DNA of 4,835 nt from a virus. Lineage: Duplodnaviria; Heunggongvirae; Uroviricota; Caudoviricetes. The position numbers were made by a program, and so were the translations under genes. Shown here one piece after another: positions 37-4,835 of this stretch; position 1 is the first letter of the stretch; every line of letters starts with the position of its first letter. Location: the IMG/VR virus record IMGVR_UViG_2700989363_000007, one strand, 5' to 3'. Below the pieces are notes generated by a model. It was given only the letters and a program-made list of their open reading frames with translations. It made no database searches and was not told where the DNA came from.

Positions 37-636
37 TCAGAATTTATAACCGACACCCACGATGAAACCGTCAGTGCGCCAGTCACCACTGCCGGAGCCT
101 TCATAAGCAATATCAATGGCCACGGATTCGGTCGGGTTAAACTGCACGCCAGCTCCCCACGCCAGAGACGTGTTGCTGTGGCGATCGTCATCACTTCCGG
201 TCAGCACATCGTGCGTTTTCCCCTTGTTGTCAGTTACGCGGAGATAATCCCCGGAGAACGTCGAAACACGGCTGTAAGCCACACCTGCCATCGCATAAGC
301 ACTGAACCATTCATTCACGCGTACAGATGGCCCCGCCATCATGCTGAACCAGCGGTTACGCACTGAATCTTCATGCCAGCGGGTATCGCTGTAATGCGTT
401 TTTTGCTCATCTTTGGCATTGGCATAACTGAATGACGTCACCAGCCCCAGCGTGTCCGTAAACTCATAACGGTATTTCACGTTAATGCCCTTCAGGTCAT
501 CACTGCCTGGCATATCAGTATGGGTCTGAAGATACCCGGCGCTTAGTGTGGACTGATGCTCTGCTGCGCTCGCTGGCGTACCAGCGGCAACCAGCCAGAC
601 TACTGCGGACAGAATAACAGCACATAATTTACGCAT
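37..636 (-). CDS. lom: Outer membrane protein Lom (Ail/Lom/PagC/OmpX family 8-stranded beta-barrel), phage moron gene
   Basis: 199-aa ORF with stop TGA at 37-39 and ATG at 634-636. N-terminus MRKLCAVILSAVVWLVAAGTPASA/AEHQ is a typical Sec signal peptide with an AxA cleavage motif. The mature protein has alternating hydrophobic/aromatic beta-strand patterning and ends in a C-terminal Phe (GYKF), the outer-membrane beta-barrel signature. Sequence closely resembles lambda Lom as I recall it, and the position immediately downstream of J matches lambda gene order. Confidence 0.93.
   Translation of the reverse strand: MRKLCAVILSAVVWLVAAGTPASAAEHQSTLSAGYLQTHTDMPGSDDLKGINVKYRYEFTDTLGLVTSFSYANAKDEQKTHYSDTRWHEDSVRNRWFSMMAGPSVRVNEWFSAYAMAGVAYSRVSTFSGDYLRVTDNKGKTHDVLTGSDDDRHSNTSLAWGAGVQFNPTESVAIDIAYEGSGSGDWRTDGFIVGVGYKF
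565..636 (-). other. Signal peptide coding region of Lom (residues 1-24, predicted cleavage after ASA)
   Basis: Positively charged N-terminus (MRK), hydrophobic core (LCAVILSAVVWLVAA), then small-residue ASA before AEHQ. Cleavage site is predicted by motif only. Confidence 0.6.
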
Positions 637-657: not shown

Positions 658-684
658 AATAAAAAAGGCACCATTTCTGGTGCC
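658..684 (-). terminator. Rho-independent terminator downstream of J (minus-strand orientation)
   Basis: Minus-strand sequence GGCACCA-GAAA-TGGTGCC is a perfect 7-bp GC-rich stem (plus 667-673 / 678-684) with a GAAA tetraloop, followed immediately by TTTTTTATT (plus 658-666). It lies 20 nt after the J stop codon. On the plus strand the same hairpin is not followed by a T-run, so it is unidirectional. Confidence 0.72.
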
Positions 685-703
685 CGTATCTGGGTTATAA
701 AAT

Positions 704-3700
704 TCAGCTAATCGTGATGCCTGCAGTGGCTTTCTTCATCACAACAACCAGCAAATCGCTGATACTTGCTGTGGGATACCAGCCATTTACCAGCCATGCT
801 GACACCGAAAACTCCAGTGTCATGTGACCGTGACCGGCAGGCATATCAATAACGCCACTGTAAATCAGCGTATTATCCAGCGCGGTACGGTTATAAATTT
901 CAGCACCGTTTTTCCGCACTATCAGACGGCATGAGGAGTAAATATCAGTATGCTCTCTCTCATGCTTAGCGCCACTGAATGCCACAGCCGGAATAACAAT
1001 TTGCCGGTCAAACGGCTGATCGTCATAAACCCTGACGGTAATGGTCCCTGATGGCCACCGCTCCGGTGCCCGGGAGTCACGGGGGAAAGCTTTGCCCACT
1101 GTTTTAACGAGATCGCCTTCAATCTGGTTCGCGGACAGTTTTCCCAGAACCCGACAGTTCTCGTTAATCGTGACGTTGTTGAGCGTCCCGGAGTTCGCAT
1201 TCACGTTACCGCTGATATCGGCATTTTTCGCCGTCAGCCGCCCGTCCGGTGTCAGGGAAAATGCCGGAGGATTACCGCCGCTGGTAATGGTGGGAGCCGT
1301 CAGGCGTTTCAGGAACACGTCGTTCATGAATATCTGATCGCCCTGACCAACAAACATCGGCTTTGTGTTGCCATTCGCAGGATTAATCATCGCAATCCGG
1401 TCAGCAGCCAGAAGCACCTGACTCTGCATACCTGCTGGCGTATTCTCAATACCGGCTCCGATACCCGCAATATAAAGGCGTCCGTCCTTCATCTGCTGCA
1501 GTTTCACGGCCCACATGCTGTTCAGGTTATTATTTGTATCAACCTGAACTTTCTGTATCTGCTGGATTGCCGCGCTCTGATTTTCCAGTTTCTTATTGAC
1601 GGTCTGTGTGATTTCATTGCTGACATCCGTAATGGACGTCCTGATTTCAGCCAGGTCAGGCGCAAGCTGATCGTTATCAATCTGCGTCCACAGCTCCTGA
1701 GCCAGATGTGTTTTCCCGATTTTTTCTTTAAAAAAATTCAGGTAACCTTCCGCATCATCGCTCGCCCGACCGACGGCCTCCACGAATGCCGATTTGCCAA
1801 CGGTATTCACACTGCGGATATAAAAGTAATAATCATGGCCCGGCCTGATATTGATACTGGCGGCTATCCAGTACATCCCCGTGCCAAGATAGCGGGCTGT
1901 GGTTTCAACCTGCCTGATATCGGCAATCCGCTTTTCCGAAAACCAGAACTCAAACTGTACCGTCGGATCATAAACCGCAAGATGCGGCGTGGCGGTTATC
2001 TGAAAATAGCCCGGCGTCAGCTCAATCTGTGACGGCGCTGCCGGTGCGGCAATCCGGAACGATACCGACGCCGGATCGCCCTGCTGTCCCCATGCATTTA
2101 CTGCCCGGACTGTCAGCCTGTAGTTCCCCAGAGCCAGTTGTGTGAAGCGGTAAGTGGTTTCCGTCGTCCGGGCCGTGCTGACCAGCCGCTCACTGCCGTC
2201 ATCCGCTGCCACGGTCAGGCGAAGCATAAAGCTCACCCCCTTCACCACCTTCGGCGTGTCCCAGCGGGCCAGCACCTGGTATTCCCCGCTGTCTGCGGTG
2301 ACTTCGGCGGTCAGATGCTGCACTGCTGGCGGCGTGACACCATTCACCGTGCCGCTCTGGTTACCGTCAAAGTGCGCCCCGTTATCCACGATGGCTTCTT
2401 TCTCCGGTACATGCTGCACTGCAGTGATGGCATACGTACCGTCGTCGTTCTCACGGATACTCACACAGCGGAACAATCGCTGGTGCAGCGTCGGCAGCTT
2501 CAGCCCCCACACGCTGTACTCGGCAACGCCGTCAGGAACCCGGCTCACTTTCACCTTCACGCCGTCGGTGATGGACTGGACCTCCACGCTGACCGGATTG
2601 CCACTTCCGTCAACCAGGCTTATCAGCGTGGTGCCGGAGGATGGCAGCGTGATTTCACGGTCGAGCGTCAGCGTCCGGGTCTGGCTGTTCACCGCCAGCA
2701 CGCGCCCGCCGGTGCTGATACCGGCATAGTCATCATCGCAGATTTCAATGACATCGCCCGGTACATGGCGAAGCCCTTCGGCACCCACGCTGAAGTCCAC
2801 GGTCTGCGTCTCCAGCAGTTCTGTTTTAATCAGCCACAGCCCGGCGCGGTGCGCCTGCCCCCGACTGGTACAGCCAAACGCATCCATCTTTGTGACGTTA
2901 CGACCATAACGGGCAATGGCCTGCGAGTCCTCCACAAGCTCTGTGGCCGCCTCCCAGCCGTTATCCGGGTCAATCCAGTTCACTTCAACGGCATTATGGC
3001 GGTCTTTCAGGGCGCTGAAGCTGTAGCGGAATGGTGCACCATCATCCGGCATCACCACATTACTGCGGTTATAGGTCCACACCTTATCCGATGGTCGGTC
3101 CTGCACGAACGTCAGCGTCTGCCCGTTCCATACCGGCATACAGCGCATCGCCGAGCAGAAATCACTGAGCACATCCCACGCCTTACGTTGTGTGGTCAGG
3201 TAAGCGTTACAGGTGATGCGCGGCTCCGTACCGCCAAAGCCGTCCGGCACCGACTGGTCGCAATTCTGGCCGATGACATACAGCGCCCATTTGTCCACAT
3301 CCGCCGCACCGAGACGTTTCCCCATGCCGTAGCGCGGGTGGGTCAGCATATCCCACAGACACCAGGCCATGTTGTTGCTGTATGACGGTTTAAACGTCCC
3401 GTCCCAGATACCGCTGTATTGCCGCGTCTGCGGGTTATAATTCGACGGCACCTGCAGAATACGCCCGCGAAGATGATAATTACGGCTCACCTGCTGGCTG
3501 CCGAACTGCTCCGAATCCACCTGTACGCCGACCAGTGCCGTGTTCGGGTAGCACTGTTTCACATCGATGATTTCGGTGTATGACGACCAGAGCGTTTTGT
3601 TCTGCAGCTGGTCTGTGGTGCTGTCCGGCGTCATCCTGCGCATCCGGATGTTGAACGGGCGCGGCGGCAGATTATCCACCACTACCGAGGCCAGATACTG

Positions 3701-4183
3701 CGAGGTGGTTTTGCCCTTAATGGTGATGTCTTTTTCCGTCACCCAGCCACCGTTACGCTGTATCTGAACCAGCAGGCGGACTTCCGACGGATTCCGGTCC
3801 CCCTTTGAAGTGGTTTCCACCAGTGCCTGCACACCGAAGGTAAAGCGCAGACGGTCAATGTTTGCCGACGTGATGGTCCGGGTGATCGGCGTGTCGTATT
3901 TCACTTCCGTGCCCAGTACCGTCTCGGAACCTGATGATTCAAATCCCTCCGGCGGTGTCTGTTCCTGCTCACCTGCCCGGAACACCACCGTGACACCGGA
4001 GATGTTAGTATTCCCCTCACTGTCCAGCACCGGTGTACTGTTCAGCAGCACGCTTTTTAATCCATCCACCGGACCTTCAACCGGCCCTTCGCTGATGGCA
4101 TCGATCACACTCAGCAACTGCGTGGACTTCAGGTTGTCCTTTGCTTCGCGCGGGGTATGCCCCTTACTGCTGCCTTTACCCAT
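704..4183 (-). CDS. J: Tail tip host-specificity protein J (central tail fibre, receptor-recognition protein)
   Basis: 1159-aa ORF with ATG at 4181-4183 and stop TGA at 704-706. N-terminus [41 protein letters not shown] and long internal stretches match lambda gpJ as I recall it. Size (lambda J is 1132 aa) and position between I and lom fit. The C-terminal region diverges (see findings). Confidence 0.96.
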
Positions 4184-4243: not shown

Positions 4244-4835
4244 TCAACGACCAATCACCACAACCTGACCACCGTCCCCCTCGTCTGCCGTGCTGATCTC
4301 CTGAGAGACAACACGTGACCCCACGCGCATTTCACCGTACAGAACAGGCAGAACATTGCCCTGGGCAACCATGTTGTCCAGTGACGAGAAATACGTGTTC
4401 TGCTTACCGTTATCCGTTGTCTGTGTACGGGGAGTTCTGGGTTTAGGGGCCAACATCTGGGCCACACCGCCAAGCACCATACTGGCACCGAGAGAAAACA
4501 GGATGCCGGTCATACCACCGGCCCCAATGGCTGCCCCCCATGCTGCAAGGGTGGCTCCGGCAGTAAAGAATGATCCGGCAATGGCGGCAGCCCCCAGGAC
4601 AATCTGGAATACACCACCTGACTTGGCCCCGGCGACTCTGGGAACAATATGAATCACAGCGCCGTCAGGCAGAGTCTCATGTAACTGCGCCGTTAACCCG
4701 GACGTGCTGACGTCCCGCCCGGCAATCCGTACCTGATACCAGCCGTCGCTCAGTTTCTGACGAAACGCCGGGAGCTGTGTGGCCAGTGCGCGGATGGCTT
4801 CAGCCCCCGTTTTCACACGAAGGTCGATGCGGCGG
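4244..4835 (-). CDS. I: Tail tip assembly protein I, 5'-truncated by the window edge
   Basis: Stop TGA at 4244-4246. Translation ...RRIDLRVKTGAEAIRALATQLPAFRQKLSDGWYQVRIAGRDV...EGDGGQVVVIGR matches the C-terminal ~195 residues of lambda gpI as I recall it. The reading frame stays open to position 4835 (upstream codons give RRIDLR), so the true start is beyond the window. The M at 4816 in the ORF track is an internal GTG (Val) codon, not the start. Confidence 0.93.
   Translation of the reverse strand, partial: RRIDLRVKTGAEAIRALATQLPAFRQKLSDGWYQVRIAGRDVSTSGLTAQLHETLPDGAVIHIVPRVAGAKSGGVFQIVLGAAAIAGSFFTAGATLAAWGAAIGAGGMTGILFSLGASMVLGGVAQMLAPKPRTPRTQTTDNGKQNTYFSSLDNMVAQGNVLPVLYGEMRVGSRVVSQEISTADEGDGGQVVVIGR

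Follow-up and report, generated by a model that had tools for sequence, protein, structure and literature searches.

This locus raises the question of whether a J protein with a lambda-like body has exchanged its tip by recombination and, if so, which outer-membrane receptor the present tip recognizes. The initial annotation of the window, that is, of the whole analyzed 4835-bp contig, had proposed that a conserved scaffold carries a replaced tip, directed at a receptor other than that of lambda or at a variant of LamB. The window includes the complete J gene (central tail fiber, or tip attachment protein) of a lambda-like Shigella sonnei prophage together with its neighbors:

37–636, minus strand: lom-like outer-membrane protein gene, 199 aa (Pfam Ail_Lom over its full length, E = 1.7e-127)
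666–685, minus strand: terminator-like hairpin followed by a T-run between J and lom, found by a consensus scan
704–706, minus strand: stop codon of J
704–4183, minus strand: full-length gene for J, the tip attachment or host specificity protein (1159 aa, with the stop codon included in the coordinates), as given in the ORF list
4244–4835, minus strand: 3' part of the tail assembly gene I (Pfam Lambda_tail_I), cut by the contig end

The J protein belongs to the gpJ family. Its six Pfam domains (Phage-tail_3, FNIII-A_GpJ, Ig_J, Ig_J_second, Phage_Tail_Tip, and Ig_GpJ_C) all score above the curated cut-offs and follow the order observed in lambda, and the gene order I–J–lom on one strand is collinear with that in lambda, 434, and PhiR46_1, as expected for the family. 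In the BLASTP comparison with lambda J (NC_001416, 1132 aa), the identity is 83% over 1159 aligned positions (E = 0). An exact match to the whole protein is provided by WP_052969156.1 from Shigella sonnei. On one side of J, the gene I region shows 92–98% nucleotide identity with lambda; the GTG start listed for its ORF probably arises only because the window ends within the gene. On the other side, phages 434 and 21 have a terminator annotated at the matching position between J and lom. The lom gene is 98–100% identical at the nucleotide level to that of phage 2G7b and 97–100% identical to that of PhiR46_1, and it is part of the same 2G7b-like block as the J tip.

Identity to lambda is distributed unevenly along J. 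It amounts to 98% for residues 1–200, 98% for residues 201–400, 96% for residues 401–600, and 95% for residues 601–815; thus, the near-identity to lambda claimed for the first ~815 residues holds. The departure was also placed correctly, at about residue 816 (nt 1736–1738), as identity falls to 20% over residues 816–889, where gaps of 21 and 7 positions leave 28 extra residues in the window protein. It then rises to 78% over residues 890–1005 and decreases again to 56% over residues 1006–1064 and 34% over residues 1065–1159, the last residue being encoded by nt 707–709. Hence the last ~150 residues, described in the initial annotation as strongly divergent, retain only 34–56% identity, well below the >90% that would speak against this description. 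The peptides quoted in that annotation are present in the window J. The following parts of the gene can be delineated:

2027–4183, minus strand: lambda-lineage body, residues 1 to ~719, with the hub domains and the first FNIII/Ig domain
~1901–2026, minus strand: interval holding the left crossover, residues ~720–761, defined by runs of informative sites
1517–1738, minus strand: divergent alpha-helical shaft module, residues 816–889, longer than that of lambda by 28 residues
1169–1516, minus strand: central straight fiber (beta-prism), residues 890–1005, conserved among J proteins
707–1168, minus strand: Ig-like receptor-binding domain (RBD), residues 1006–1159, of the VT1-Sakai/2G7b/gpJ-1A2 allele

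The body DNA is 90–99% identical to that of lambda, 434, 21, 2G7b, and PhiR46_1, and every long run of informative sites up to aa 708–719 sides with lambda over VT1-Sakai. The last lambda-type run ends there, and the first VT1-Sakai-type run begins at aa 762. The exact crossover point within residues ~720–761 is invisible, because the window resembles lambda and the donor lineage equally there, at ~94% similarity to each. At the DNA level, the crossover therefore lies upstream of the point where the protein begins to differ from lambda. From approximately residue 762 onward, the J DNA is 92–99% identical to that of VT1-Sakai, and by sequence the gene follows a VT1-Sakai (O157 Sp15)-like lineage through to its end, starting at residue 762 or before it. 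The protein sequence of the shaft module is 93% identical to those of phage 21, PhiR46_1, and VT1-Sakai, and its DNA has no nucleotide alignment to lambda while matching VT1-Sakai at 94–96%. Lambda residues 841–861, which are part of the shaft (PMC11101478), map to window residues 869–889.

The central block had been noted as conserved again, and its 78% identity to lambda agrees with that; it is not lambda-derived, being 97% identical to VT1-Sakai. This difference in identity implies a single non-lambda block that begins at ~residue 762 and runs through the stop codon; residues 890–1005 are simply conserved among all J proteins and do not form a lambda-derived island. The Pfam domain Phage_Tail_Tip spans residues 872–1000, and the nucleotide bin at residues 950–983 is 85–96% identical in six lambda-like comparison phages and 82% identical in phi330. 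The C-terminal end of the prism is both a natural and an engineered junction. 2G7b changes there from the lambda-type sequence to the window tip, and the engineered fusion point of the 1A2 and A8 chimeras, lambda residue 964, corresponds to window residue 992 (nt 1208–1210).

The DNA of the RBD and of lom is 99–100% identical to that of phage 2G7b. The RBD DNA is also 95–99% identical to that of VT1-Sakai, although the N-terminal J body of that prophage is only 62–84% identical to the window. No alignment of the RBD DNA to lambda was obtained at the nucleotide level in 100-nt bins. In 2G7b, this RBD is combined with a shaft of the lambda type, which demonstrates that the domain is exchanged as a module. 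Segment identities, 100-nt bins, and informative-site runs concur on this mosaic anatomy, and congruence between body and tip across lambdoid phages is already contradicted by the bins and the runs. The divergence of the J tip from lambda is due to recombination and not to local drift, and the proposed replacement of the tip by recombination among lambdoid phages is confirmed by the same RBD DNA on the 2G7b and VT1-Sakai backbones.

The fold of the tip is retained despite this replacement. An AlphaFold2 model of residues 992–1159 was obtained with a mean pLDDT of 79 and a pTM of 0.73. Its top Foldseek match is 9wcb (TM 0.74, 62% identity), entitled 'Open state of A8 gpJ 713 central tail fiber with OmpC ... 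EDL933'; further best matches are 9wca (A8 gpJ713 without OmpC) and the lambda gpJ structures 8xck and 8xcj (TM 0.74–0.75, 46% identity). The same A8 and lambda gpJ chains are returned by the PDB sequence search (E = 2e-120 to 3e-100), and the Pfam domain Ig_GpJ_C spans residues 1029–1159. The structure prediction suggested in the initial annotation thus yields a preserved Ig-like porin-binding fold, nearest to A8 gpJ and lambda gpJ. Nevertheless, the domain is not a LamB-binding RBD of the lambda type, as the fold is shared but the loops differ throughout. The lambda loops L1–L4, which enter LamB, are given without residue numbers in the text of PMC11101478, so predicted secondary structure and the hairpin numbers of phi330 were used to define loops. 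In the RBD model, identity to lambda is 37% in strands and 51% in loops. The polymorphic sites of the allele family within the structured core of the model (1076/1077, 1118/1120, and 1131/1134) fall within predicted loops or at loop termini.

A direct link to receptor use is provided by a set of chimeras in which natural J tips follow residue 964 of lambda J and whose sequences were published (Brödel et al., Nature 2024, PMC11338833). One of these chimeras, gpJ-1A2, has a tip almost identical to that of the window downstream of this fusion point. When a strain deleted for lamB and ompC was supplied with the ompC allele of E. coli EDL933, gpJ-1A2 delivered DNA efficiently through this OmpC, whereas delivery was poor with MG1655 OmpC in the same deletion background (PMC11338833). 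The 1A2 sequence was taken from a machine-converted PDF with indel errors, and an ordinary tblastn search of the window tip against it gave frame-shifted pieces; hence a frameshift-tolerant alignment was used. Among 168 codons, 156 are identical, 5 are unreadable, and 7 are different, so that the two RBDs are near-identical (156/163 readable codons). Five of the seven differing codons adjoin base drops in the machine-read text and are doubtful in addition to the five unreadable ones; a stop codon is among these five differing codons. This leaves two credible substitutions between the window and 1A2, R1076K and G1134N, which correspond to the natural VT1-Sakai/783R2 variant. In the window, these codons are:

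956–958, minus strand: codon AGA, R1076 (K in gpJ-1A2)
782–784, minus strand: codon GGC, G1134 (N in gpJ-1A2)

By analogy with this chimera, the receptor of the window J is most likely OmpC and not LamB, since the same RBD, two residues apart, redirects lambda particles to OmpC in gpJ-1A2. The earlier suggestion of a different outer-membrane receptor or a LamB variant is supported by the published OmpC use of the near-identical tip. It is likely that the window J is a recombinant joining a lambda-like body to an acquired block of shaft, prism, and OmpC-type RBD.

Other readings of the same data have to be weighed against this one. Accelerated point mutation of the resident tip, driven by diversifying selection and without import of a foreign module, would be consistent with the location of the core polymorphic sites in or beside predicted loops, where selection would act on contact residues. 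However, the RBD has no DNA alignment to lambda while the body is 90–99% identical, the strands are as divergent as the loops, and identical RBD DNA is present on different backbones in 2G7b and VT1-Sakai. In-place hypermutation as the cause of the tip divergence is contradicted by the 100-nt bins and the informative-site runs, and we reject this explanation as extremely improbable.

The choice of receptor is a separate matter. The window tip could still bind LamB, perhaps a Shigella or E. coli variant, as an old, functionally equivalent allele similar to that of phage 21. The native receptor of this phage is LamB (PMC11336670), and over the last 168 residues its J has 68% identity to the window, more than lambda J has. 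LamB of S. sonnei is a very good lambda receptor (PMC11101478), and two loop residues distinguish the window allele from the tested 1A2 tip. We nevertheless find LamB use unlikely, as the 98.8%-identical 1A2 tip is active in a lamB deletion strain and requires OmpC (PMC11338833), and phage 21 differs from the window at ~32% of positions and has a 5-residue insertion in one contact hairpin. Use of another outer-membrane protein (OmpF, FhuA, FadL, etc.) or of two receptors is less plausible still and can be regarded as very unlikely. Several receptors are known for lambdoid J tips, and lambda and phage 21 gain OmpF use through point mutations (PMC11336670), but both tested relatives, 1A2 and the A8/phi330 type, use OmpC, the RBD fold is of the porin-binding Ig-like type, and nothing points to another receptor for the window allele family.

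In the preferred reading, J was built by homologous recombination and most likely recognizes OmpC. Its first ~720 codons are of the lambda/434/21 lineage, and codon ~762 through the stop codon, together with lom, is of the lineage of phage 2G7b and the O157 prophage VT1-Sakai (Sp15). This acquired block comprises the longer alpha-helical shaft with its 28 extra residues, the conserved beta-prism fiber, and an Ig-like RBD of an allele family other than that of lambda. By analogy with the lambda–LamB structures, the bottom loops of the trimeric RBD most likely enter an outer-membrane porin that is itself a trimer, and binding of the porin would open the tail tip, as inferred from the lambda structures (PMC11101478).

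The closest known systems share parts of this architecture. gpJ-1A2 has a lambda-type J body and the same RBD allele from window residue 992 to the C-terminus, but its helical shaft and beta-prism are of the lambda type, whereas the window shaft is longer and of the VT1-Sakai type; its OmpC assay was thus made on a lambda shaft. It has K1076 and N1134 in place of R1076 and G1134, and its tip DNA is synonymously recoded, with 70% nucleotide identity to the window. VT1-Sakai, or Sp15, of E. coli O157:H7 Sakai (AP000400) and many Stx1a/Stx2a phages have a shaft, prism, and RBD similar to those of the window. The last 168 residues of VT1-Sakai are 98.8% identical to the window, differing at R1076K and G1134N, and its own J is annotated as split by a frameshift mutation. 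Phage 2G7b (LR595866 / NC_049954, Nesevirus) has a lambda-like J body and R1076/G1134, and its last 168 residues are 100% identical to the window; unlike the window, it has a lambda-type shaft without the 28-residue insertion (1131 aa), and its crossover into the shared tip is at ~residues 950–990 and not at 720–760. 2G7b has been propagated on a laboratory indicator strain, K-12 MAC1403 or E. coli C.

More distant relatives differ in the RBD allele. Lambda gpJ (P03749; structures 8XCK and 8XCJ with LamB) has the same domain order and fold and binds LamB, whereas the allele family of the window binds OmpC, as tested in 1A2. The tip of A8 gpJ (PDB 9WCA and 9WCB) is of the phi330 type; phi330 (PV189401) uses OmpC, as established by knockout and complementation (PMC12502783). 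Both have the same fold as the window but a distinct allele, the phi330 identity being 64% over the last 168 residues. Their indel pattern differs from that of the window in two loops: five residues, NQQSY, are inserted in one contact hairpin of A8 and phi330, and the 4-residue RAPE segment of the window is missing from both. The long shaft is shared by phi330 and the window, whereas that of the A8 chimera is of the lambda type; A8 can use OmpC of either K-12 or EDL933. Reference 47 of PMC12502783, cited there for long-tailed Stx phages using OmpC, concerns the virulent phage PP01 and is irrelevant here. Phage 21 J is similar to the window in its long shaft (93% over residues 816–889) and prism (94%), but its RBD allele is different and closer to the phi330 type. 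For the PhiR phage panel (PV3405xx), the literature search yielded a ManYZ/SNIPE paper using the panel and no receptor assignments for those phages.

The two residues that distinguish the window from 1A2 deserve separate consideration. R1076 falls in segment 1075–1080, aligned with the phi330 hairpin E953–S962, whose predicted orientation is toward the inside of the OmpC barrel, and G1134 falls in segment 1132–1137, aligned with hairpin A1015–P1020, predicted to contact the barrel rim (PMC12502783). Site 1134 is polymorphic (G/N/D) among natural alleles and sits in a predicted loop of the model. Because both credible differences are located in predicted OmpC-contact hairpins, the OmpC specificity of the window allele could differ from that of 1A2. 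Receptor use in the J family shifts easily, as phage 21, which natively uses LamB, gains OmpC use by a single J mutation and evolves use of both OmpC and OmpF (PMC11336670). It is conceivable, though we regard it as rather doubtful, that R1076 and G1134 set the accepted OmpC variants, e.g., K-12-type versus EDL933-type, or even restore LamB use.

Of 5426 complete E. coli genomes, 3373 contain a match to the RBD DNA, with 193 records at 99% identity or more and 1921 at 95–99%. The window tip thus belongs to one of the most frequent tip families of E. coli prophages, which has already been characterized, so that the finding, while real, is ordinary and constitutes no noteworthy departure. It has little discovery value, confirming the textbook mosaicism of lambdoid tail-tip genes. 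For annotation, the gene is better described as J with an OmpC-type (1A2/VT1-Sakai-like) RBD than as 'lambda J, LamB-binding'. The naturally polymorphic residues 1076, 1134, and 1118/1120 are candidate positions for tuning the recognition of OmpC variants by lambda-based delivery particles. If R1076 and G1134 do determine the range of accepted OmpC variants, a natural two-residue host-range switch among E. coli and Shigella lineages would exist in this very common family of tips.

On the minus strand, the window follows the gene order of the lambda tail-tip region:

4244-4835, minus strand: gene I, 3' part only, truncated at the window edge
704-4183, minus strand: complete J gene, 1159 aa
666-685, minus strand: terminator-like hairpin between J and lom
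37-636, minus strand: lom-like gene, 199 aa, Ail/Lom family

Gene I (4244-4835) leaves the contig at its end, and the 190-aa ORF with a GTG start is probably a window-edge artefact, with the real start elsewhere. The element at 666-685 is a GC-rich hairpin followed by TTTTTATT; it lies 19 nt past the J stop codon, ahead of lom, and phages 434 and 21 have annotated terminators at the equivalent position.

The J protein was aligned with lambda J (NC_001416, 15505-18903), and identity was taken by segment.

Protein identity of the window J to lambda J
Residues 1-815: 95-98%
Residues 816-889: 20%, with gaps of 21 and 7 giving 28 extra residues in the window
Residues 890-1005: 78%
Residues 1006-1064: 56%
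Residues 1065-1159: 34%

This pattern is not due to chance, since the DNA of the J body matches lambda at 90-99% identity, and neither the shaft nor the receptor-binding domain (RBD) can be aligned with lambda DNA. The initial annotation, whose coordinates and peptides are correct, had described near-identity to lambda up to residue ~815, a departure from residue ~816 and divergence of the last ~150 residues; all three hold, the C-terminal identity being 34-56% rather than above 90%.

Pfam assigns Ig_J_second to residues 716-818, Phage_Tail_Tip to 872-1000 and Ig_GpJ_C ("C-terminal receptor binding domain") to 1029-1159. The cryo-EM structure of lambda gpJ shows, past the two FNIII domains, first a shaft of alpha-helices, then a prism of beta-sheets, known as the central straight fibre, and last an RBD of Ig-like fold, which inserts four of its bottom loops into LamB (PMC11101478). 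A part of the lambda shaft, residues 841-861, maps to window residues 869-889. The three zones are thus a helical shaft that was replaced and lengthened, a conserved prism and a replaced RBD. The shaft module (window 1517-1738) is 28 residues longer than in lambda, both gaps being heptad multiples. The long form is shared with phages 21, VT1-Sakai, phi330 and PhiR46_1, whereas lambda, 434 and 2G7b have the short one. The lambda shaft flips and partly refolds while the tail opens, and so shaft length might influence triggering.

The origin of this mosaic was analyzed by comparison in 100-nt bins with lambda, 434, 21, 2G7b, PhiR46_1, VT1-Sakai and phi330, and by counting informative sites in a six-way DNA alignment. 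Up to residue ~719, all long runs of informative sites side with the lambda-like phages and against VT1-Sakai; from residue 762 onwards, as far as the stop codon, all side with VT1-Sakai. Thus, the crossover lies between residues ~719 and 762. In this interval the window is ~94% similar to both lineages, which explains why the protein looks non-lambda only from residue 816. The central block (890-1005), previously read as conserved again, is indeed conserved, but it does not originate from lambda: being 97% identical to VT1-Sakai versus 78% to lambda, it is part of the imported segment, merely conserved across J proteins.

Between about residue 983 and the end of lom, the window DNA is 98-100% identical to 2G7b (over lom, 97-100% to PhiR46_1). 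The lom-like gene aligns poorly with lambda lom and travels together with the RBD, and hence the exchanged block reaches past J. Phage 2G7b has a lambda-type shaft and changes to the window-type tip at residues ~950-990, a stretch with 85-96% identity in six lambda-like comparison phages and 82% in phi330. Finding one RBD on three distinct backbones provides direct evidence of modular exchange, as proposed initially in terms of recombination among lambdoid phages, and rules out divergence in place. Modular exchange also agrees with the divergence of the RBD from lambda, which affects predicted strands (37% identity) as much as loops (51%).

The decisive evidence on the receptor has been published, for engineered chimeras. 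Brödel et al. (Nature 2024; PMC11338833) fused natural J C-terminal parts at lambda J residue 964, equivalent to window residue 992, and screened for use of receptors other than LamB. Chimera A8 works through the OmpC of MG1655 as well as that of EDL933, chimera 1A2 is efficient in delivery only via EDL933 OmpC, and combined they reach 21 of the 23 OmpC variants tested (PMC11338833). The DNA of both is printed in the supplement (PMC11338833); as the 1A2 text was a machine reading with many dropped bases, a frameshift-tolerant protein-to-DNA alignment was used. Over the 168 residues from 992 to the C-terminus (the tip), 156 codons are identical, five are unreadable and seven differ. Five of the seven adjoin dropped bases, one of them being a stop codon, and are almost certainly reading errors; the remaining two, R1076K and G1134N, represent the natural VT1-Sakai/783R2 variant. 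Past the fusion point, 1A2 and the window share only 70% DNA identity, with nearly all third codon positions different, versus ~99% for the protein. The published tip is thus a recoded sequence, at odds with the methods, where it is described as amplified from a strain (PMC11338833).

The A8 tail is a phi330-type tip, and phi330 requires OmpC, as demonstrated independently by knockout and complementation (PMC12502783). The top sequence and fold matches of the window tip are A8 gpJ713 alone (9WCA) and bound to EDL933 OmpC (9WCB), followed by lambda gpJ. By analogy with 1A2 and the A8/phi330 type, the window J probably uses OmpC; the earlier suggestion of a different outer-membrane receptor or LamB variant is supported by EDL933 OmpC-dependent delivery with the near-identical 1A2 tip (PMC11338833).

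Receptor choice shifts easily in this tip family. Phage 21 shares 68% identity with the window over the last 168 residues; its native receptor is LamB, and one J mutation adds OmpC use (PMC11336670). Residues 1076 and 1134, the credible differences from 1A2, fall within segments 1075-1080 and 1132-1137, which align with phi330 hairpins E953-S962 and A1015-P1020, placed by an AlphaFold3 model in the OmpC barrel and on its rim (PMC12502783). Among the comparison sequences (VT1-Sakai, L004 and L009-L012), polymorphism recurs at 1076/1077, 1109, 1118/1120, 1131/1134 and 1157; sites 1076/1077, 1118/1120 and 1131/1134 are in or next to predicted loops, and residue 1134 is G, N or D across natural alleles. 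The exact window allele is also present in 2G7b, which appears to come from a study whose indicator strains were K-12 MAC1403 or E. coli C (PMC6969025).

Residues 992-1159 were modelled with AlphaFold2 from 25 sequences. The model is an all-beta domain (mean pLDDT 79, pTM 0.73; within the structured part, 79-97 for most blocks of 10 residues), with Foldseek TM scores of 0.73-0.75 to 9WCB/9WCA and to 8XCK/8XCJ. Judging from the model and these matches, the fold is kept, the predicted difference from lambda being one of surface, and the trimeric, porin-docking mode is probably kept as well.

The full-length J exactly matches WP_052969156.1/CST42491.1 from Shigella sonnei, recorded on one 4835 bp contig and alone in its 90%-identity cluster; the window thus represents an entire short contig from a draft assembly. 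This mosaic is rare, although every module is common. In tblastn, the last 168 residues match 55 phage records with at least 90% identity, including 2G7b (100%), VT1-Sakai, PPompW prophages, many Stx1a/Stx2a phages, PhiR5_1, PhiR55_1 and PhiR46_1. The RBD DNA (window 707-1168) has matches in 3373 of 5426 complete E. coli genomes (median 2, maximum 9 copies per matching genome), with 193 match records at 99% identity or more and 1921 at 95-99%. Co-resident prophages in one genome often have the same tip type, and 31 matches of the RBD family are on plasmids. In VT1-Sakai, the O157 Sakai Stx1 prophage, the J gene (AP000400, L007:1035-4507) carries an annotation as a pair of overlapping truncated ORFs ("truncated protein by a mutation"), and still its tip shares 98.8% identity with that of the window; thus, intact-looking tips survive in prophages with a broken J.

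In summary, the mosaic J with a replaced tip is confirmed, and its interpretation as a receptor switch is supported. The window J is an ordinary member of an already known and previously tested tip family, and four main J clusters were noted among infant-gut lambda phages by Mathieu et al. (PMC6969025). The window tip is a mainstream allele, and that of lambda is merely one among several.
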